Source: Candidatus Kapaibacterium sp. (GTDB lineage Bacteria > Bacteroidota > Ignavibacteria > Kapaibacteriales > UBA2268). Taken from it: a DNA stretch of 64,000 nucleotides. How positions within the stretch are numbered: position 1 is the stretch's first letter; each line of letters opens with the position of its first letter. Shown here piece by piece: positions 4,665 through 63,563 of this stretch. The notes below the pieces were generated by a model. It saw nothing but the letters and a program-made list of their open reading frames with translations. It did no database searches and was not told where the DNA came from. Position numbers and translations under genes: made by a program. The stretch covers positions 4,896,001 through 4,960,000 of the forward strand of contig OY762428.1 in NCBI GenBank assembly GCA_963665665.1, in the 5' to 3' direction.

Positions 4665-6554
4665 ATGAGAAAATGGACAATTGAAGATTCGGCGGAACTT
4701 TACAACGTAAAGGGATGGGGCCTAAATTATGTTGGTATAAATAATCAGGGGAACCTGTTTGTAAAGCCAAATTCGGGTAGTCCGGAAATCGATATAAAAG
4801 AGATAATTGACGAGTTGAACCTTACGGATGTAAATACGCCGGTACTTCTCAGGTTTCCGGATATTCTGGACAGCAGGATTGAAACTTTGGCTGAATGTTT
4901 TGCCAAATCCTCTGAAGAATACGAGTACAAGGGAAATTATTTTACGGTCTATCCGATTAAAGTCAACCAGACCAAGCAGGTAGTGGAAGAAATCCTGCGA
5001 TACGGTAAAAAATATAATATCGGCCTGGAAGCCGGATCAAAACCCGAATTACATGCTGTTCTGTCATTCACTGAAAATTCCGATGCTCTGATAGTTTGTA
5101 ACGGATATAAAGATGATGATTTTATCGAGCTTGCACTGCTTGCACAGAAAATGGGCCGGAAGGTTTATATTGTAGTAGAGAAACTCAATGAATTAAGGCT
5201 GATCATAAAAAAATCGAAACAGCTTAATGTTGCTCCCAATATTGGTATCAGGGTGAAACTTTCCAGCGAAGGAAGTGGTAAATGGGAGGATTCCGGCGGA
5301 GACAGGAGTAAATTCGGGCTCAATGCCAGTGAACTTCTCGAGGCAATAGCAATGGCTGAAAAGGCAAAAGTTCTTGACAGGATAAAACTCGTTCATTTTC
5401 ACCTCGGGAGCCAGATTACTAATATTAGAAATATCAAAAATGCACTCAGGGAAGCTTCTCAGTTCTACGTTCAATTATGTAAAATGAATTGTTCGGTTGA
5501 ATTTGTTGATATTGGCGGCGGCCTTGGTGTGGATTATGACGGCTCAAAATCCTCTGGTTCCAGCAGTATGAATTATTATATACAGGAATATAGTAACGAT
5601 GCCGTTGCCACATTCGGGGAAGCTTGCGAGAAACACGGCTTGAAGCACCCTAATATTATTTCCGAGTCAGGAAGGTCACTTACAGCTCATCATACTCTGC
5701 TGGTTTTTGATGTACTTGAAAAAACAACGCTGCCGTCATGGCCGGAAGATGAAGAAACAACTGATAATGATCATGAATTAACCAAAGAGCTTTACGATAT
5801 ATGGGATAATTTTACATTGCAGGGTATGCTTGAGTCCTGGCATGATGCCTTACAGATAAGGGGAGAGGCTTACGATCTGTTTTCACTCGGCCTGCTCGAC
5901 CTTAGCACAAGGGCTAAAATTGAAAGGTTGTTCTGGTCAATAGCCCGGGAAGTTTATCATGCCAGCCAGGAGATGAAACATCCTCCGCCGGAATTGCGAA
6001 AATTATCGAAAATGCTTGCTGATAAATATTTTTGCAATTTCTCTCTGTTCCAGTCTTTGCCGGATTCTTGGGCAATAGACCAGGTATTCCCGATTATGCC
6101 GATTCACAGGCTGAATGAGAAACCGAACAGGGTGGCTACTCTCCAGGATATTACATGTGATTCCGACGGTAAGATTGATAACTTCATTGGTGCACGCGAT
6201 ATAGCTTATTATCTTCCGGTGCATGATTTCAAAAAAGGCAAGCCATATTATATTGGGGTTATGCTAATAGGAGCCTACCAGGAGATACTTGGTGATATGC
6301 ACAATCTTTTCGGAGATACAAATACTGTTCATATTAAAATTAAAGATAATTATTACGTAATTGACCAGGTAATTGACGGGCAGACGGTTACGGAAGTATT
6401 GGAATATGTTCAGTATAATAGCAAAAAGATGGTCCGAACAATGGAAACATGGGTAAGCCGTGCAGTGAAAGAAGGCAGGATAACAGCTGTGGAAGGAAAA
6501 GAATTCCTGTCGAATTATAAATCAGGATTATACGGATATACATACTTGGAATAG
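4665..6554 (+). CDS. speA: Biosynthetic arginine decarboxylase
   Basis: YPIKVNQ PLP-lysine motif, LEAGSKPEL, HFHLGSQ, DITCDSDG, GAYQEILGDMHNLFG; start moved to MRKWTIEDS. Confidence 0.95.
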   Translation: MRKWTIEDSAELYNVKGWGLNYVGINNQGNLFVKPNSGSPEIDIKEIIDELNLTDVNTPVLLRFPDILDSRIETLAECFAKSSEEYEYKGNYFTVYPIKVNQTKQVVEEILRYGKKYNIGLEAGSKPELHAVLSFTENSDALIVCNGYKDDDFIELALLAQKMGRKVYIVVEKLNELRLIIKKSKQLNVAPNIGIRVKLSSEGSGKWEDSGGDRSKFGLNASELLEAIAMAEKAKVLDRIKLVHFHLGSQITNIRNIKNALREASQFYVQLCKMNCSVEFVDIGGGLGVDYDGSKSSGSSSMNYYIQEYSNDAVATFGEACEKHGLKHPNIISESGRSLTAHHTLLVFDVLEKTTLPSWPEDEETTDNDHELTKELYDIWDNFTLQGMLESWHDALQIRGEAYDLFSLGLLDLSTRAKIERLFWSIAREVYHASQEMKHPPPELRKLSKMLADKYFCNFSLFQSLPDSWAIDQVFPIMPIHRLNEKPNRVATLQDITCDSDGKIDNFIGARDIAYYLPVHDFKKGKPYYIGVMLIGAYQEILGDMHNLFGDTNTVHIKIKDNYYVIDQVIDGQTVTEVLEYVQYNSKKMVRTMETWVSRAVKEGRITAVEGKEFLSNYKSGLYGYTYLE

Positions 6555-7587: not shown

Positions 7588-7944
7588 GAGCTTTCCGAGC
7601 GTTCCCCCATGCTTTCCGAGCGTTCCCCCGAGCCTGCCGAGCGTTCCCCCGAGCTTCCTGAGCGTTCCCCCGAGCTTTCCGAGCATTCCCTCATGCTTTC
7701 CGAGCGTTCACCCGAGCTTTCCGAGCGTTCACCCGAGCTTTCCGAGCATTCCCTCATGCTTTCCGAGCATTCCCCCCAGCTTTCCGAGCGTTCCCCCGAG
7801 CTTTCCGAGCGTTCCCTCATGCTTTCCGAGCGTTCACCCGAGCTTTCCGAGTATTCTCCCGAGCCTGATTATCGCTGATATATGCCGTCTTAGCGTTGGT
7901 TAGTGCCGTCTTAGCGTTGGTTTGTGCTTTCAAAAACACTTTTC
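7588..7944. repeat. 21-bp tandem array (13 conserved units plus about 4 diverged in-phase units)
   Basis: Unit (GA/AT)GCTTTCCGAGC(G/A)TTC(C/A)C(C/T)C from 7588 at 21-bp steps to 7860, then TGCCGTCTTAGCGTTGGTT x2 in the same phase. Confidence 0.95.
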
Positions 7945-8244
7945 CAGGTAAAATTTTACTAAGATTACACAGAATTTTACTCTTTTGATAAGAAATTTCG
8001 TTCTATTGATCCGTTCGATCCATTTTATCAATTAATATTTTGATCTGATAATGCATCTGTTTGCTTTTGCCGGGTGATTGTTTTATTTATAAATATTGAA
8101 GTTTGCTTTGCCCGGCAATGTTGATAATCCATCGGCACATAATTTCCATCGGATGGAATGTGAAATACTTATCATGCCTGGCCCGAACAGGATTATCGTT
8201 TCAATCTGTCATGTTTTTATAGTTCTGTATTAAATTACTTATGG

Positions 8245-27463: not shown

Positions 27464-27570
27464 TAAAATATGAATACATTAGGGGAAGGCTTATACATGT
27501 TAAAACAGCTGGCCTTCCCCAGACTTATTCCCAATCTTTGATTTCACCTGTCCCACGCCGGCGCATGGAT

Positions 27571-27822
27571 TGTCATACTGAGCGAAGCGAAGTATCCATT
27601 CTTTATACATTATCTGCAAAGTAAATGTGGACTTCCTCTGTTGCAAGAGCAGCGAAATCATATAAAAAAGCTCCGTAGGAGCGGAATTTTTGTAGATAAT
27701 ATTTGCATAATCTTCATTCAAAGCTCCGTAGGAGCGACATCTGAAATGTAAATGCCGCCCCGACGGGGCTGTTATTCATCCCGGGATCGATTTACTACAA
27801 AAATGTCGCGGCTACGCCGCTA
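27571..27822. repeat. Cluster of REP/MITE-like palindromes
   Basis: GTCATACTGAGCGAAGCGAAGTATCC; AGCTCCGTAGGAGCG x2; GCCCCGACGGGGCT; GCGGCTACGCCGC. Confidence 0.8.
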
Positions 27823-27873
27823 TCCTTCATTCCGATGAATAGGGGGATGACGGATAGGAATATCTTCCTGGGA

Positions 27874-28083
27874 CAGATTTGCCATTATTTACCACAAAAT
27901 ATCAATCATATATCCCACAATTCTGATTTTTTATATCAAAATAGTGATCCTATTGCTGAGAAAATCAATTCTTTATCTCATAATATTGATTCTTACTTTC
28001 AAAATTGTGAATCAATATCATAAAAATCTGATCATTTGAACTATAATTCCGATTCTTTATTTCAAAATAATAAATACACGGAT
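27874..28083 (+). repeat. Degenerate 21-bp periodic array (about 10 units)
   Basis: CA(A/C/T)AAT recurs at 27895, 27916, 27937, 27979, 28000, 28063; (A/G)AT at +9 in most units. Confidence 0.7.
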
Positions 28084-28662
28084 TATTTGAATGAAGCCTA
28101 ATCCTGTAAATGATTTGATGTGTGCAATTGGTTAGTATCGGATAATCGGGTTAATATTTAGTAAGTGTAATCTATTATATATTTTATTTATCAGAGTATA
28201 TAATCATCATAAATTTATATTTTATCGGTATATTTTATTAAAATTTTAATCTATTTTATGCTTGATATAGTTTATCTAACTAAATTCCTTATTTATATTA
28301 TTGATTAATTTATGTATATGATAAAATAATGAGTTATGCTAATTGTATATTATATTTGTCCTATTATATAATAAAGTGTTATAATTTATTAGGCTAATCT
28401 GTTTTTTACTAAATAAGGATGCTTATTTAATATGAAATGAAATGGAATTAATATTATGAGTTAATTATTTACTAATATGAATATGTTATTTAATATTTTT
28501 GATTGATTATTTATGGTTTTTGGTTAGGGAATTACTAAATTATTTAATATAAATATTAATTGTTATTATTTTAATTGTTGTATAAGTAGATTATTTCTTT
28601 GAACTTATAATTTAATTACTTATATTAATATTAGTAATCATATTATATATCGGGGAGATATA

Positions 28663-29577
28663 ATGTCTGTAATACTAAACAATAATTTCTCGCAGGATAC
28701 TCATGATATCAGGGCTGAAAGGCTTAGGAAAATCCAGGATAATCATGATTTTATTCGTGATGAGCTTCATGCGCCGGAGGAGATTTGTATTTGGGCTGAG
28801 GACTGCTATGATATATTCATGGATAAGATTAGTTCGTCGGCGGTGGACACTGCGCAGTGGCATTCACAGACCTTTTCGGTGCAGAACATGCTTAGGGAGC
28901 TGACGGAATGTTATCAGATTGTGCGGGCGTTGGGTATTCCGATTTACGCGGATGATCAGAAGCATCTGAAAGATTTTGATTTTGGTCTGAGGTTCCCAAA
29001 GTCGCGCCTGGAGATGCTTTCGAGGGCCGAGCTGATTATTGAAGTGCACAACCGGCACGTTCAGGAGGGGCTGCCGAAAACTATTCCGCAGCTGATGATC
29101 GACAGGCTGGCTGCGGCGATTGCCGAAACGGAGCTGGCGATGGAGGAACAGGAGCAGAAAAAGAAGCGCGCGATGCACAGCACTGCGGAGCTGAAGGAGC
29201 TGATGAAGGCCGACGAGTGGCTGCTGACCTTGCTGAAGGGCTGGTGGCGCGGGGTGATGGGCAAGGATTCGGTGCTGATACAGAAAATCGGGATGGTGAA
29301 CCTGAAAAGGCGCGGAAACCCGCACAGGCCCGAGGCTCCGGCGGATTTTGACTATGATGCCGCGCAGGAAGTTTTTTCCTGGCCGGAGGTGGAGGGCGCG
29401 ACAAGCTACGAGATTGTGACGCGGAGCGCAAAAAAGGGTAAAAAATGGCGGAAAGCCTGGCGGGGACGCGTTCTGAGCGCTATGCTGCCGCCACCGGAGA
29501 GTCCGTCCGAGTACGCCGTGCGCGCGCGCAACCATAATGGCTACGGGCTGATAAGCGCTGTGGTGGCGGTGGGATAG
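28663..29577 (+). CDS. Helical protein with C-terminal fibronectin type III-like domain (copy A)
   Basis: GGGGAG SD; no signal peptide; C-terminal PEAPADF...FSWPEVEGATSYEI...EYAVRARNHNGYG..S. Confidence 0.8.
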   Translation: MSVILNNNFSQDTHDIRAERLRKIQDNHDFIRDELHAPEEICIWAEDCYDIFMDKISSSAVDTAQWHSQTFSVQNMLRELTECYQIVRALGIPIYADDQKHLKDFDFGLRFPKSRLEMLSRAELIIEVHNRHVQEGLPKTIPQLMIDRLAAAIAETELAMEEQEQKKKRAMHSTAELKELMKADEWLLTLLKGWWRGVMGKDSVLIQKIGMVNLKRRGNPHRPEAPADFDYDAAQEVFSWPEVEGATSYEIVTRSAKKGKKWRKAWRGRVLSAMLPPPESPSEYAVRARNHNGYGLISAVVAVG

Positions 29578-29738
29578 GCGGAAGGGGAAATATGTGTCGG
29601 TATTTTTAAATAATAACGAAGAAGTTGCACCTGAATATTGTTAGTTCTCAAATGAAAAATAAAAATCCCGTTTTAAAAAAACGGGAAATTAAAAATTGAC
29701 ATCAAATATTGATCTTCAGCCCTGAATGAACTTTGAAA

Positions 29739-45666: not shown

Positions 45667-45834
45667 AAAAGCTCCAAAGCATTGTGAAATATATATTCAG
45701 GCAAATTATAAAAAGAGAAGTATAAATACAAATTGGATGTTTGGGCTGCATCAGGAAAGATCACACCTATTCATCTTTACTCAGATGGCCAACACCTTTA
45801 GGCGATGTCCCATTATTCTGAATTTTTACTATTT

Positions 45835-46080
45835 GTAATTCTGAACGCAGCGAAGAATCCAGTATTCATGCAAGCTATGGATCCTTTGATTCTCTCAGGA
45901 TGACATCCCCCAACTTCTTCGCAAAATTCAATAGCCACGTGCTCTATCTCGTGGATAAGGGAGGCTAAGAAAAAGAAACCACCCCTGTATTCCCCTCTAC
46001 TTTAGGAGGGGATAAGAAGTTAAATAACATAGAATTAACTCCCCCTCCTTTCGAAGGAGGGGGCCGGGGGGAGGTAGGAA
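45835..46080. repeat. Cluster of REP/MITE-like palindromes
   Basis: GTAATTCTGAACGCAGCGAAGAATCC...CAGGATGAC; AATAGCCACGTGCTCTATCTCGTGGAT; CCCCTCCTTTCGAAGGAGGGG. Confidence 0.75.
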
Positions 46081-46091
46081 GGGTCTATGGT

Positions 46092-46931
46092 AATGCACCG
46101 ATGGTCGACACTATTGAACCAATGTTTTGCTTTATTGCCGCCTTGTTTTGCTTCAAAGACCTCCCCTTCGGGGAGGGTTTGGGAGGGGTCAGAAGAAATG
46201 CACCGATGTTTGATGATATTTCCGCCTTGTTCGACACTATTGCAGCAATGTTTTGCTTTATTGCTGCCTTGGTCCAAATCGATGCACCGATGGTTGAAGA
46301 TAATGAATTCTTGGTCGACACTATTGCACCGATGTTTGGAGTCATTGCACCGATGTTCTAAGCTATTGCACCGATGTTTGGAGTCATTGCTGCCTTGTTC
46401 CAAATCGATGCACCGATGTTTGATGATAATGAACTCTTGTTTGAAGGCATTGAACTCTTGTTCGGAGGCAAAGAACATGTTCAGTAAGGTCAAACAAGCG
46501 TGGGATGAGGCCAAACAAGCGTGGGATGAGGCTAAACAAGCGTGGGATGAGGCCAAACAAGTGTGGGATAATGTCAAACAAGCGTGGGATAATGTCAAAC
46601 AAGCGTGGGATAATGTCAAACAAGCGTGGGATGAAGTCAAACAAGCGTGGGATGAGGCCAAACAAGCGTGGGATGAAGTCAAACAAGCGTGGGATGAGGC
46701 CAAACAAGCGTGAGATGAAGTCAAACAAGCGTGGGATGAGGCCAAATTTCACTACAATAAGGCCAAACAGTAGTTCAATAACTCCGGCCAAGGCAGTTTA
46801 AAGCCCTGCAATCCAAGCAATTAGCCCAAACATCAGGATTTTGATTAAAAACAGCATTGAATTAAGGGAATTATCCGGTTCATTGAAACCACAGGATGGG
46901 GAATTAAGGGCGGTGCTTGGTTCATTGGGGT
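46092..46931. repeat. Composite 21-bp tandem array, about 40 units in one phase
   Basis: Degenerate ATTGCACCGATGTTTGGAGTC-type units 46092-46490; 12 conserved CAAACAAGCGTGGGATGAGGC units 46491-46742; degenerate tail with 42-bp repeats to about 46930. Confidence 0.92.
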
Positions 46932-46971
46932 GGAAGAACGGGGGGTAAGGGCAGGAGAAGGAGGTATTATG

Positions 46972-47200
46972 TTGTCATTCCCCGACACGTCACCGAAAAA
47001 TCGGTGCAGGCAGGGGCAGGCTTCCGGAGCTTGCGACTGAAGAATCCATCTTCTTTAGCCAGATAATGTATAGGAATGGATACTTCGCTCCGCTCAGTAT
47101 GACATCCGCCCAGAGCATCGCAAAATTCAATAGCCAGGTGCTTTAGCTCGTGGATAAAGGAAGCTAAGAAAAAGAAACCACCCCGCCCTTCGGGTATCCT
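46972..47200. repeat. Cluster of REP/MITE-like palindromes
   Basis: GAAGAATCC...GGATACTTCGCTCCGCTCAGTATGAC; AATAGCCAGGTGCTTTAGCTCGTGGAT...AAGAAACCACCCC. Confidence 0.75.
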
Positions 47201-47205
47201 TCGAG

Positions 47206-49675
47206 CTTCCGCCTATCCCACCGCCACCACAGCGCTTATCAGCCCGTAACCATTATGGTTGCGCGCGCGCACGGCGTACTCGGACGGACTCTCCGGTGGT
47301 GGCAGCATAGCGCTCAGATCGCGGCCCCGCCAGGCTTTCCGCCATTTTTTACCCTTTTTTGCGCTCCGCGTCACAATCTCGTAACTCGTCGCGCCCTCCA
47401 CCTCCGGCCATGAAAAAATTTCCTGCGTGGCATCATAGTCAAAATCCGCCGGAGCCTCCGGCCTGTGCGGGTTTCCGCGCCTTTTCAGGTTCACCATCCC
47501 GATTTTCTGTATCAGCACCGAATCCTTGCCCATCACCCCGCGCCACCAGCCCTTCAGCAAGGTCAGCAGCCACTCGTCGGCCTTCATCAGCTCCTTCAGC
47601 TCCGCAGTACTGTGCATCGCGCGCTTCTTTTTCTGCTCCTGTTCCTCCAGCGCCAGCTCCGTATCGGCAATCGCCGCAGCCAGCCTGTCTATCATCAGCT
47701 GCGGAATAGTTTTCGGCAGCCCCTCCTGAACGTGCCGGTTGTGCACTTCAATAATCAGCTCGGCCCTCGAAAGCATCTCCAGGCGCGACTTTGGGAACCT
47801 CAGCCCAAAATCAAAATCCTTCAGATGCTTCTGATCATCCGCGTAAATCGGAATACCCAACGCCCGCACAATCTGATAACATTCCGTCAGCTCCCTAAGC
47901 ATGTTCTGCACCGAAAAGGTCTGTGAATGCCACTGCGCAGTGTCCACCGCCGACGAACTAATCTTATTCATGAATATATCATAACAGTCCTCAGCCCAAA
48001 TACAGATTTCCTCCGGCGCATGAAGCTCGTCACGAATAAAATCATGATTATCCTGGATTTTTCTAAGCCTTTCAGCCCTTATATCATGAGTATCCTGCGA
48101 GAAATTATTGTTTAGTATTACAGACATTATATCTCCCCGATATATAATATGATTACTAATATTAATATAAGTAATTAAATTATAAATTCAAAGAAATAAT
48201 CTACTTATACAACAAATAAAATAATAACAATTAATATTTATCTAAAATAATTTAGTAATTCTCATGTTAAAAACCATAAATAATCAATCAGAAATATTAA
48301 ATAGTGTATCTATATTGGTAAATAATTAATTCATAATATCACTTCAAATTCATTTCATATTAAATAAGCATCCTGATTTAGTAAAAAACAGATTAGCCTA
48401 ATAAATTATAATACTTTATTATATAATTGGAAAAATAATATATACAATTAGTATAACTTATTATTTTATCATATACATAAATTAATCAATAATATATATA
48501 AGGAATTTAGTTAGATAAACTATATCAAGCATAAAATAGATTATATATTTAATAAATTATACCAATAAAATATGAAATTATGATGATTATATATTCTGAT
48601 AAATGAAATATATAATAGATTACACTTACTAAATATTAATCTGATTATCCGATACTAACCAATTGCACACACCAAATCATTTACAGGATTAGGCTTCATT
48701 CAAATAATCCGGATATTAATTATTTTGAAATAAAGAATCAGAATTATAGTACAAATATTCAGACTTTCCCGATATTGATTCACAATATTGAAAGTAAGAA
48801 TCAAAATACTAAGATAAAGAATTGATATTTTCAGCAATCAGATCACTATTTTGATATAAATTATTGGAATTGTGGGGTATATGATTGATATTTTGTGGTA
48901 AATAATGACAAATCCGCCGCAGGAGGACATTCTTATCCCTCATCCCCCTGTTTATCGGAATGAAGGATAGCGGCGTAGCCGCGACATTTTTGTAGTAAAT
49001 CGATCCCGGGATGAATAACAGCCCCGTCGGGGCGGCATTTACATTTCAGATGTCGCTCCTACGGAGCTTTTTTATATTATTCCGATGCTCTTGCGACTGA
49101 AGAATCCATCTTAATTTGCCAGATTATATATGAAGAATGGATACTTCGCTCCGCTCAGTATGACATTCCATGCAGAGCATCGCAAAATTCAATAGCCACG
49201 TGCTCTATCTCGTGGATAAATGTGCAAGGTGCGAAGGCAAAGAAAAAGAATCCACCCCGTCTCGCTGCGCTCGCCACCCCTCGAGAGGGGAATTTTTCGG
49301 AATCCACCCCAGCCTGCTATGCCGCCACCCCCTGCCTGTCCCGATATATCTGGAATAAATCGGGGACGGTTGGGAAAATTTTATTGGTATGAAGGATAGC
49401 GGCGTAGCCGCGACATTTTTGTAGTAAATCGATCCCGAAAAGAACAACAGCCCCGTCGGGGCGGCATTTACATTTCAGATGTCGCTCCTACGGAGCTTCG
49501 AATGAAGATTATGCAAATATTTTCTACAAAAATTCCGCTCCTACGGAGCTTTTTTATATGATTTCGCTGCTCTTGCAACAGAGGAAGTCCACATTTACTT
49601 TGCAGATAATGTATAAAGAATGGATACTTCGCTTCGCTCAGTATGACAATCCATGCGCCAGCGGGGGACAGGTGA
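47206..49675 (-). repeat. Copy B of the duplicated cassette (429 bp longer than copy A)
   Basis: Reverse complement of 27544-29584; an ~110-bp module is present twice, at 48960 and 49389. Confidence 0.95.
47213..48127 (-). CDS. Helical protein with C-terminal FN3-like domain (copy B)
   Basis: 298/304 aa identical to 28663-29577. Confidence 0.8.
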   Translation of the reverse strand: MSVILNNNFSQDTHDIRAERLRKIQDNHDFIRDELHAPEEICIWAEDCYDIFMNKISSSAVDTAQWHSQTFSVQNMLRELTECYQIVRALGIPIYADDQKHLKDFDFGLRFPKSRLEMLSRAELIIEVHNRHVQEGLPKTIPQLMIDRLAAAIADTELALEEQEQKKKRAMHSTAELKELMKADEWLLTLLKGWWRGVMGKDSVLIQKIGMVNLKRRGNPHRPEAPADFDYDATQEIFSWPEVEGATSYEIVTRSAKKGKKWRKAWRGRDLSAMLPPPESPSEYAVRARNHNGYGLISAVVAVG

Positions 49676-49792: not shown

Positions 49793-49888
49793 GGGGGTAG
49801 GAAGGGGCAGCAGGATATTTTCAATTTCATTTTCTTGATAAAAACCTTTGTTTTCTCATTTCATTCAGCTAATTTTGTACTGATAGTT

Positions 49889-50060
49889 TATGGGTGTTCT
49901 CCGTGAACCCACGGCAAACTTAAAAGGGAAGCATGTGAAAATCATGCACGGTTGCGCCGCTGTAACGGGGGACGAGCTTTTCAGGCCGAGAGGCAGCCAC
50001 TGCGGAAACGCGGGAAGGCGAAAAGCAAGAACGATCCCGGAGTCAGAAGACCTGCCCATG
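49889..50060 (+). ncRNA. Cobalamin riboswitch
   Basis: AAAAGGGAA, CCGCTGTAA, GCCACTG, GGGAAGGC, B12 box GAGTCAGAAGACCTGCC; P1 ATGGG/CCCAT; upstream of B12 uptake genes. Confidence 0.92.
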
Positions 50061-50208
50061 AATCTCATTGGCCGCCATTTGTGGCGACATCCGCGCTAAC
50101 GGATGCAGTGAAGAGATTTGATGATAAAACACTCGCACATCACTCCCGCTCATTGTACATACTCGTTAGCAAACAGTTTTGTTTGTTGAATTATCTTTTT
50201 CGAGGTTT

Positions 50209-54687: not shown

Positions 54688-54788
54688 TATGAAGATAATT
54701 GCTGATAACATGGTAAAATATTCGTCGAAAAAGAAGTGTTGCTTTCTTAGGCAGGAACTTAGGAAAGAGAGCATGAATTTTCAATTCT

Positions 54789-54877
54789 GTCATTCTGAAC
54801 GAAGTGAAGAATCCATTCTTCAAAAACATCTGAAAAGAAAGATGGATTCTTCAGTCACTTCGCTCCATCAGAATGAC
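54789..54877. repeat. 89-bp GTCATTC...GAATGAC palindromic element
   Basis: GTCATTCTGAACGAAGTGAAGAATCC...GGATTCTTC...TCAGAATGAC. Confidence 0.85.
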
Positions 54878-63100: not shown

Positions 63101-63563
63101 CTGTTTTGTTCTCTAAATGCAGGTTAAGAGTTTTTAATACTTCATCTCTATCATCCGGATGGAGTCGGGTTTTCCAAAGGTCAAATGAATTTGATTCTTC
63201 ATCAATATTTAAAATTTTTTTCCATGCATGACTGTAAAACACTTTGTTTTTGGAAATATTCCAGTCCCAAATGCCATCCTGAGATGCTTTCATTGCATAA
63301 TCGAAGCGCTGTTCGCTTTCTTTTAATTCTTTTTCATTAGCCAGTAATTGGCGGTTGGCAGCCCGTAATTGCTGTTCATTTGCCTGTAATTGCTGATTAG
63401 CAGCCCGTAATTGCTGTTCATTTGCCTGTAATTGCTGATTGGCAGCCCGTAATTGCTGTTCATTTGCTGCAAGCTGTTGATTGGCTGCTCTTAGCTGCTG
63501 CTCATTGGCTGACAACTGTTGATTGGCTGCTCGTAATTTAGAATCTGACGAATTTTTTCCCAT
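57177..63563 (-). CDS. Cytoplasmic hybrid histidine kinase: Gln-rich coiled coil, about 12 PAS, GAF, HisKA, HATPase, REC
   Basis: 12 D(N)I(T/S)xRK-type PAS-terminal motifs; H-box IAHNFKN; N box NASQAM; DTGIGI, FFTTK, GLGL; REC LMLDD...ILDL...KP. Confidence 0.93.
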   Translation of the reverse strand: MGKNSSDSKLRAANQQLSANEQQLRAANQQLAANEQQLRAANQQLQANEQQLRAANQQLQANEQQLRAANRQLLANEKELKESEQRFDYAMKASQDGIWDWNISKNKVFYSHAWKKILNIDEESNSFDLWKTRLHPDDRDEVLKTLNLHLENKTEFWEMDHRLRTGDGNWIWVKGKGKVMEWDSEKNPVRMVGTMTDITDRKKAEQEIKKHTTFLNNSMEYSPFAMWIADAKGTVLRTNKALRDTLKLSDEQIVGKYNVFDDKNLSKPDIKEKIKKVITDFEPARFEVEWSGEKSEVESLEEAATFWIDVSLFPIQNADGELINVICQWIDITDRKQAEEKLRLSQERLQNTFDLSPSIIAKADLQSGHFIEANKAVTKFLGYSVEEFTSTPFMELIHPDDRHESAEEKDEQIKGKEVVSFENRYLCKDGTYKWIAWFGTKADKNGIVTAVGTDITEKKKAEAQIKTSEEKFRNLYEKSPFGIAICQMIKNDKNEFEDFIHIQLNESVKAHTGVDLDLLRGKKASELIDEATLKQMVDLYGNVISDSKTINYERHFDVYDRILEVTAFPLIDDYFIINFINITERKKAEEALKKSETKLKNIIENSTNLFYIHNAAGELTFISPQVKELLGYEPEEVMQKWKDFITDNPINDKAIKFTENALSTGKRQPTYELEMLRKDGKKIIVEVRESPVSENGNVISIVGSLTDISERKEAEDKIRESEAKFRSYIDNAPDGIFIANENGKYLEVNKAACDITGYTEQELLQKYIPDLLQKSEIEKGIQHFKKVKAEGFAQAEIGYVTKSGKNRFWEIDAVKLSDILFLGFVKDITARRKIQEEIKINEQRYRTAQEIGHVGNWEYNLKTTHFWGSDEAKKIYGFDPGAKNFTTDEVEECIPERENVHRALMDLIEKDKPYNLEFEIITKTKGESRIVHSIAILEKDEKGDPSKVSGVIHDITERKKAENIIRESEEKLRLLIDNSPLGICINDLEGNFILTNPAYENMLGYTKEELSDLSFFDITHPDYHTTNRSKFNKMTEGMNNRFEIQKKYIRKDGSLIDVLLHAGSIRDSEGNPTLGLAIVDDITEKNKVQARLIESETLFRNLFQKHSAVKLLIDPDDGRIVDANEAAAEYYGWSQTELRKMKISEINTLSKVEIDKELQKVRKRDIKNMEFKHKLSDGSVRDVSVYSSNVKYAGKDMLHSIIMDITERKKAEEKLKESEQQYRLLVDNINDLICEIDINGNYTYLSQNYKEVLGYEPDDLLGKPVSDLIHPEDLEASLKKYEKLTNNSGVSEDVWRFLHKDGSYRYIESKGRVYQYSEDEKRTVVISRDITDSKNAESKMKKLLSDQKILLDNDPSFIIYKDTENNIIKITDTVAKMTNLPKEEIEGKPSAEIYPTMADQYYEDDKEVLESGVPKMGYIEQLPTSDGSVKWLLTDKVPVKDENENIIGIIVFSTDITDLKKTQDALQEREQKLQRAEKIGKLGHVDWVVAEQRSYWSDEVFRIYEREPELDVPGYEEIMKLHTEEDAKRLETAVIEALQNARDYDLDLMAVMPSGKQKTLHIIGKPVQDDKGNITNIVGTVQDISDRIKAEEEIRRSRDEILLKNKISNAFVLRSEEMVFNKILKIVLDFLNCKFGYFGYITEQQSLICPSMTSDIWDKCRMSDKSIEFPIEVWGGIWGESLKTKKSIFQNEGLSLPDGHVQLRNALAVPIIYREKLIGQIGVADIKNGFDDKHLNFLEDICSYISPMLNSVLNQKRHEEELQRISKMESLGVIAGGIAHNFKNILTAMALSAEIAKARPEKSEKHLAKIIRAIDQASALATRFQTFSKTDQPVLEPVDINSIILEATEMALTGTSIVPKFELYNDIPKILLDAKRINEVLTNLLLNASQAMPKGGNIYIRSLINEGKDQLLNGNSIQIDIEDTGIGIPSDKINEIFTPFFTTKEGGHGLGLATVYNIIKKHNGEIKVYSTPGNGTTFSIFLPVNVPEKDNILKDSKNFKFKNLVTILMLDDNREILENIEDLFLEYNISITGFSDPELLVEEYQNSLDSRKYDLVILDLTLIGYNVDGLDVLRQLRKIDHNVRALVFSGHFDKPVVSNYQDYGFVGRIDKPLVLEQFLAEIKKAMAF
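63327..63536 (-). repeat. Coding 42-bp tandem repeat, (LRAANQQLxANEQQ) x5
   Basis: Residues 10-79 of the kinase. Confidence 0.92.

Follow-up and report, generated by a model that had tools for sequence, protein, structure and literature searches.

At positions 46092–46931 of the 64 000-nucleotide stretch of Candidatus Kapaibacterium DNA analysed here (the window), a tandem array of 21 bp units raises the question of what holds its period constant while its sequence drifts. An earlier note had described it as about 40 units that change sequence family but never lose phase, even across an inserted palindrome, and had proposed that selection acts on the period itself, either as two helical turns of a phased protein-binding array or as a heptad peptide. 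The whole two-armed element spans 46092–46968 and is best read as a non-coding, length-constrained 21 bp satellite.

Period, extent and contents

Autocorrelation, the check proposed for the period, was run on 46092–46931 and gave peaks solely at multiples of 21 (21, 42, 63, 84, 105 and 126; 0.53–0.59), and TRF returned periods of 21, 42, 63 and 126. The array consists of about 41 slots of 21 nt with contiguous units and no spacers, so that the exact period and the estimate of some 40 units were both borne out. No lag-7 signal was present in its lag spectrum, which leaves an origin from heptamers without support. The right-hand end, formerly placed at 46931, lies 37 bp further on, at about 46968, as judged with the left-arm profile. 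The element is made up as follows.

46092–46477, plus strand: left arm; degenerate, 18 slots of 21 bp (two of them held by the palindrome block) and then the junction unit's first half
46155–46196, no strand assigned: hairpin block of 42 bp, a hairpin followed by a G-rich run (core 46160–46188), register unchanged
46473–46482, no strand assigned: orientation-switch palindrome; perfect, 10 bp, symmetry axis at 46477.5, from the sequence and the dyad scan
46478–46737, minus strand: core of the right arm; 12 near-identical units (6 distinct) of the same family as the left arm
46738–46968, minus strand: degenerate tail of the right arm; 11 further units by the left-arm profile, in the best of 42 registers

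Degenerate left units do begin at 46092, the 12 conserved units are near-identical (46491–46742) and two tail motifs each recur at 42 bp, all as first described. The core, with 6 distinct units and 7 substitution steps, is probably a recent local expansion. The TG dinucleotide that had been called conserved was found at unit positions 11–12 in 16 of 16 left units (block slots left out; the junction unit reads TT) and in 12 of 12 core units, but in only one of nine tail units; it is common to left arm and core because a CA..TG pair inside the unit is swapped by the inversion. Self-BLAST revealed no second copy of the unit family within the 64 kb window, and the array DNA had no match in plasmid and phage collections.

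Orientation of the units

The supposed change of sequence family is a change of strand: left arm and core share a single family of units, read in opposite directions. Arms across 46470 emerged from an inverted-repeat scan, and a dyad scan gave a Watson–Crick complementarity of 0.52–0.53 at in-phase centres near 46467–46478 against 0.24 ± 0.05 off phase. When the left and core profiles were compared, the reverse complement was best (11.2 versus a null of 8.3 ± 0.7, p = 0.003); the comparison of left arm and tail gave p = 0.001. The same-strand register used in the earlier note ranked third of 21 shifts for left versus core (6.8 versus 8.7). A weight matrix trained on the left units alone placed all 23 minus-strand units at 46486–46968 in the top 5% of the background, 18 of them in the top 1%, and the 11 tail units all fell in the top 5% by the left-arm profile; on the plus strand the 12 core units scored at background level. 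The reading of the core as a second family was ruled out by the profile comparison and the left-arm matrix. The element thus has two arms, of about 18 and 23 units, which face each other head to head and meet at 46473–46482, and a same-strand phase maintained across this junction is without support. An explanation of the junction by an internal dyad of the unit was dropped, since the axis ranked only 3–5 of 21 in the left, core and core-plus-tail profiles and 9 in the tail alone.

The palindrome block

The block at 46155–46196 fills exactly two slots, as had been claimed, and the units on either side of it are in register: the same strand with a shift of 0 was the best of 42 strand and shift combinations (12.7 versus a null of 7.9 ± 0.6, p = 0.001), where a block of random length would keep register in 1 of 21 cases. 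Its net shift is therefore 0 modulo 21, while its description as an insertion is uncertain. The first slot keeps an identity of 11–12 of 21 with the units at 46428 and 46449, and a shorter hairpin may therefore have replaced part of a unit. We take the block to be REP-like; no further copy was found in the window at up to three mismatches.

Coding potential

Both strands are indeed open for more than 200 codons (211 codons on the plus strand, 46078–46713; 237 codons on the minus strand, 46035–46748), and these two frames run through the junction and the block. The array might accordingly encode, or once have encoded, a heptad peptide in the minus SHACL/HRCN frame, the plus KQAWD frame or an IxxLFGL-type frame of both arms, and a GGAGG-like run lies upstream of the plus ORF. 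Against this, four of the six frames are free of stops in the consensus anyway, and the stop counts in the two long frames match those of column-shuffled arrays (P about 0.3). The right arm contains 1–20 stops in every frame, no single open frame spans the whole array, and no third-position excess of variation was seen by entropy. The synonymous-change test, a weak one with an underpowered positive control (7 differences), gave no excess in the named frames (HRCN, 7.5 observed versus 11.9 expected; KQAWD, P = 0.61; SHACL, P = 0.08). In each arm the IxxLFGL-type frame had the strongest synonymous excess of the six (uncorrected P = 0.04 and 0.125), and it contains one stop per arm; after correction for six frames no bias was significant.

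A search for protein homologues with three array frames as a joint profile gave a single weak, unrelated-looking match among 8000 scored candidates. The array upstream of gene copy A (below) is closed in all six frames, with 16–36 stops in each, and in the same weak test 0 of 10 and 2 of 11 changes were synonymous in the open frames of the array at a related locus, L002. Coding of the target array is thus not supported by the stop, entropy, synonymous (of limited power) and homologue tests, and the array is treated as non-coding; the heptad peptide proposed for it fails on its named frames, its missing homologues and the stops in the upstream arrays, and we regard it as very unlikely. Elsewhere in the window, a 21/42 bp coding heptad repeat lies at 63333–63538, at the start of a 2128-residue multi-PAS gene.

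Folding and a possible RNA role

The inverted arms can form a long hairpin, and the array could work as RNA: transcribed as a gene leader or by read-through, it would present a protein, perhaps the helical-bundle protein described below, with either 21 nt modules or a long, interrupted hairpin. Each strand was more stable when folded than all 20 of its dinucleotide shuffles (z = −3.4 and −2.75), which do not preserve the repeat structure; turning the right arm round cost 65 kcal/mol on the plus strand and 16 on the minus strand. Arm order is non-random, since only 1 of 200 unit-order shuffles reached the observed dyad. The array upstream of gene copy B has a weaker dyad (3 of 200 shuffles; 14 of 200 for that upstream of copy A), which is suggestive only of two arms in these arrays as well.

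Mirror partners, however, paired no better than random units of the other arm (P = 0.50–0.94, five centres; tail diagonal P = 0.06). On this evidence the hairpin follows from the inversion and shows no trace of selection for a particular register, and a selected specific hairpin was rejected for want of mirror covariation. Nor is a long hairpin common to the 21 bp arrays: the arrays of L002, L003 and 7589–8150 have no inverted arm, shuffles reaching the observed dyad in 117, 67 and 134 of 200 cases, respectively, and the array upstream of copy A folds at a z of only −1.3. A terminator-like hairpin follows gene B, and the array had no Rfam match; the only Rfam match of the window is a cobalamin riboswitch elsewhere. 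Some S23/Avd-type four-helix bundles bind RNA, and the helical domain of the adjacent protein matches this type weakly in fold (Z 7.3–8.5, rmsd 2.8–5.4, 87–105 residues aligned), at values of Z that are uninformative for helical bundles below 13; unrelated bundles gave 9.0–9.5. Taken together, a role as RNA appears distinctly unlikely. The cobalamin riboswitch (49875–50073; RF00174, 97 bits) lies upstream of genes for a T9SS-sorted protein and a TonB-dependent receptor.

Flanking repeats and the adjacent gene

The neighbours of the target array are trkH/trkA and an uncharacterized gene. Its flanking elements and the two copies of the gene are as follows.

45877–45985, no strand assigned: first copy of a compound non-coding repeat, to the left of the array; 84% to 47076–47184 and 75% to 49137–49258 by self-BLAST
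46041–46063, minus strand: terminator-like or REP-like hairpin just outside the left arm, a consensus match only
47076–47184, no strand assigned: compound repeat, copy 2, between the array and gene B, overlapping a terminator-like hairpin (47179–47196) past the gene B stop codon
47213–48127, minus strand: gene copy B; 304 residues, a long-helix bundle (1–215, internally duplicated) and an FN3 domain (220–304)
49137–49258, no strand assigned: compound repeat, copy 3, at the far flank of the gene B cassette
28663–29577, plus strand: gene copy A; 98% protein identity to B, with no array downstream

Target and gene B cassette are each bracketed by copies of one compound repeat, an arrangement suggestive of tandem modules. 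Palindromic repeats, presumably REP-like, form dense clusters that gather mostly around the two gene cassettes (27544–27839, 45819–45985, 47030–47185, 48951–49675 and 54774–54876). No transposase was found among the 47 window proteins scanned.

The array does lie about 280 bp downstream of the FN3 gene (282 bp to the stop codon of copy B). The two copies differ by 17 synonymous and 6 non-synonymous codon changes, and on this comparison the gene is under purifying selection. No Pfam or NCBIfam family reached its cut-off for the 304-residue protein. Its predicted structure (pLDDT 96) contains a bundle with two helices of 56 residues each and an internal duplication, which HHalign detected at 95.5%, and the C-terminal domain matches FN3 with Z about 12 and rmsd about 2. 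Foldseek returned no match for the helical domain at E ≤ 0.001 and VIA-align gave generic bundles only; the missing fold match is no evidence of a new fold.

The family was assembled as 61 rows, comprising 55 of 150 listed representatives that match the N-terminal domain, five of six further matches and the window protein. Most members are acidic, with a median pI of 4.8 and a net positive helical domain in 6 of 61, a property that speaks against direct binding to DNA, and fold searches revealed no recognizable DNA-binding fold. The FN3 domain of gene B (47213–47480) carries a basic loop, KKGKKWRK, without counterpart in the mostly acidic relatives. NCBIfam NF052641 (PQLLE) was matched by 30 of the 61 members at E ≤ 0.05 (best 1e-9, over most of its 211-position profile), with a cut-off of 80 bits against at most 33.7 bits for seven members scanned singly; the window protein and the L002 protein gave no match. 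The adjacent protein differs from PQLLE by its extra FN3 domain, and no relevant paper on NF052641 was found. Look-alike clusters in the Atlas are hypothetical proteins, commonest in Verrucomicrobiota. In plasmid and phage collections P0004 had no match and P0026 had two weak, FN3-only matches. The genes A and B are GC-rich (55% at 47001–48000) and abut arrays of 20% GC in a window of about 38% GC.

Arrays upstream of the family genes

Three further 21 bp arrays were found in the window.

48140–48930, no strand assigned: AT-rich (20% GC), degenerate array directly upstream of gene B; z = 7.0–7.2 at lags 21, 42 and 63, missed by TRF and by the earlier note
27861–28650, plus strand: paralogous AT-rich array upstream of gene A; z = 7.3–8.2
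7589–8150, no strand assigned: array of an unrelated sequence family between convergent genes, its GC-rich core grading into an AT-rich tail

The two AT-rich arrays, both missed by TRF, are possibly compound (periodicity dips near 28000–28130) and possibly two-armed at about 28390. A GTDB scan with nine close relatives as queries gave 128 pattern matches and four confirmed loci (L001–L004), two of them from one Candidatus Kapaibacterium genome (Bacteroidota). Each of L002, L003 and L004 has a 21 bp array in a single orientation that ends about 100–130 bp before the start codon, and these three show significant mutual similarity (p = 0.003); L001, with only 105 bp upstream, is outside the five assessable genes. 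In L003 and L004 truncated family genes lie beside persisting arrays (5332–5721, about 112 matching residues, and 6001–6216, 48 residues). Heptamer-based repeats, a class distinct from the 21 bp arrays, lie directly past stop codons in L001 (1285–1367) and L004 (5473–5520).

A 21 bp array stands directly upstream of all five assessable family genes (A, B and L002–L004) and occurs in 2 of the remaining 25 ORF-free stretches (Fisher p = 1.5e-4), in a small sample of 30 stretches of at least 150 bp from the window and the four loci. Because A and B are paralogues and L002–L004 one family, only about two independent lineages are represented, for which p = 0.017. With a threshold picked after seeing the data, z > 6 was reached in 7 of the 30 stretches, namely the five upstream of family genes, the target and the 7589 array, and four others reached 3.1–3.6.

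The link of arrays to the FN3 gene is thus real, but not in the form first noted: the arrays of the family sit upstream of the gene, whereas the target lies downstream of it and outside the A/B duplication. The latter (27720–29584 versus 49070–47206, 94.6%) ends seven bases past the stop codon and excludes the target, and gene copy A has no downstream array. The target units show no significant similarity to the upstream arrays (p = 0.08–0.9). Nor are they significantly similar to the L002–L004 units (best p = 0.076), so that an orientation of the target relative to a gene is not assignable. With a family HMM and in six frames, no gene remnant was found between or beside the target arms or beside the 7589 array (a coiled-coil-like array-ORF match had E = 0.08).

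Constancy of the period

All eight array segments, with GC contents of 20–48%, peak at 21, 42 and 63. The families represented, none related to another, number at least four: those of the target, of the 7589 array, of the AT-rich upstream arrays and of L002–L004. The arrays upstream of A and B differ by 74 substitutions and no indel over 798 bp. Seven control pairs of non-coding window repeats, which are palindromic and may be indel-prone, have 7 indels per 78 substitutions (Fisher p = 0.015 versus the upstream arrays), and a less redundant set of five pairs has 5 per 50 (p = 0.013). The short leaders of L002–L004 show 4–7 gaps per pair. Two-unit windows fitted best at an offset of 0 modulo 21 in 17 of 17 cases in the left arm, 17 of 20 in the right arm and 25 of 25 in the 7589 array; in the AT-rich array, with 18 of 37, degeneracy is too great for the check to apply. 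Since arrays are recognized by their phase, the sample is biased towards cases that keep it. With that reservation, the proposal that selection acts on the period itself is supported indirectly, by the eight segments, by the absence of indels among 74 substitutions and by the register across the block.

The same data can be set against a neutral minisatellite, in which slippage and conversion by whole units maintain an ancestral period of 21 bp, the inversion is accidental and the gene linkage reflects co-duplication of one ancestral cassette. The core resembles a recent expansion, pairing is not mirror-specific, the A and B upstream arrays have diverged by 9.3% and third codon positions by less, 5.9% (18 of 305), and the lineages number about two, all of which agree with it. 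It accounts poorly for unrelated families at 20% and 43–48% GC that are all exactly 21, for a register kept across the 42 bp block and for AT-rich arrays that are too diverged for active homogenization and yet carry 74 substitutions without an indel. We consider neutrality unlikely.

Comparison with known systems

Iterons of plasmids and phages and centromere-like arrays have sites spaced by whole helical turns beside the gene for their binder (Rep or partition protein). The target shares the whole-turn spacing, here 21 bp, and an adjoining gene for a candidate binder, but it has far more and far more degenerate units, chromosomal housekeeping neighbours and a binder that is a candidate only; no Rep, Par or replication gene was found by Pfam among the 47 window proteins scanned. 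In CRISPR arrays constant repeats are parted by unique spacers and accompanied by cas genes. A CRISPR array was rejected here, as the units are contiguous without spacers, no Cas family occurs among the 47 proteins and there is no Rfam match.

Constant-length, non-coding tandem repeats of 20–21 nt have been described in bacteria (Subirana and Messeguer, 2021; PMC8161180), and in the available part of that paper two helical turns and a polymerizing protein are proposed for them, as a hypothesis. Intergenic, non-coding repeats with a fixed 21 nt unit and several unrelated families per genome are common to that class and the present arrays. The target has at least four units of constant 20–21 nt, lies outside protein-coding genes as far as coding tests of limited power tell, and belongs to one of three unrelated families of equal length within 64 kb; of a shared short signal, another trait of that class, there are conserved columns inside the target family but no significant similarity across families. 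Families of that class are, further, specific to a species and numerous across its genome; for the target, 64 kb of the genome and one collection scan were covered. On the features that could be tested the element belongs to this class, which is the closest to it. The arrays here, found in Bacteroidota, are longer, reaching about 42 units, and some are AT-rich and so degenerate that TRF misses them; the available part of PMC8161180 reports no linked gene family, inverted arms or register-keeping insertion. The accessible text of PMC6749651 makes no mention of 21 nt, inverted or fibronectin features. Neither the gene–array link nor head-to-head arms were found described in the literature covered, which takes in few subscription journals; the same authors' 2020 survey and supplements, with their lists of repeat families, may bear on novelty.

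BrickBuilt, a minisatellite-MITE of Porphyromonas gingivalis, has according to the portion consulted a 23 nt direct unit, a conserved leader and tail and 19 copies of one family (Klein et al., 2015; PMC4596501). It resembles the target in belonging to Bacteroidota, in being an intergenic tandem array with a predicted long stem-loop and flanking terminators, and in lacking an Rfam match. It differs from the present arrays, whose unit is 21 nt, which have two inverted arms and a link to a gene family and whose families are single- or two-copy in 64 kb. The ends of BrickBuilt are inverted and its many copies dispersed; the target has direct compound repeats on its flanks, and its family has one copy in the 64 kb window. 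As far as that account of BrickBuilt extends, the 23 nt direct unit is absent here and identity was rejected, leaving an analogue rather than a match.

Proposed role of the array

The target is read as one of a set of 21 bp arrays placed ahead of the multicopy helical-bundle–FN3 genes of Kapaibacterium-like Bacteroidota. Twenty-one base pairs correspond to two turns of B-DNA, so that each unit presents the same face. We tentatively propose, at slightly less than an even chance, that the satellite is a scaffold for putative phased protein binding in which the spacing of two turns is selected. Loose sites would then all point to the same side of the helix, and a protein would polymerize along the array with one protomer or dimer per unit; drift in sequence at a fixed length would fit a polymerizing binder that reads shape or loose motifs. 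The sequence would drift and be re-homogenized by unit-wise slippage, and shifts that are not multiples of 21 would be removed. The inversion would be old, produced by a fold-back or by the head-to-head joining of two arrays, and the arms would since have diverged to about 52% complementarity.

The binder could be a host nucleoid protein. In the most speculative version it would be the adjacent rod-shaped protein, a candidate by linkage only, encoded in a cassette with its own binding array and serving orphan arrays in trans. Several observations count against the scaffold. The target lies outside the A/B duplicated unit and copy A has no downstream array, the 7589 array is without a family gene, and the family is mostly acidic and without a recognizable DNA-binding fold. 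A single protein would need to recognize unrelated sequences, given that the target units have no significant similarity to the upstream arrays, and only four related loci are at hand, two from one genome.

It is doubtful, though conceivable, that the helical-bundle–FN3 gene and the 21 bp arrays form an undescribed two-part mobile module, in which the rod-shaped protein would polymerize on arrays spaced by two turns, largely independently of sequence, and arrays without a gene would serve in trans, either as sites at which DNA is looped, condensed or segregated or as an RNA scaffold.

The feature described in the earlier note is real, is re-interpreted here and provides a testable lead to a protein partner. 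Bacterial repeats of fixed length (20–21 nt) and variable sequence are a described class that is unexplained, and their very degenerate AT-rich members escape standard repeat finders. The locus gives three testable handles: a linked gene family, a pair of arrays with substitutions and no indels, and an inversion together with a 42 bp interruption, the last of which allows spacing to be told apart from sequence and orientation. The gene–array link offers a first candidate protein partner for constant-length 20–21 nt bacterial repeats, and the two-part module, if true, would name the missing protein behind the constant-length 21 nt satellites of bacteria.
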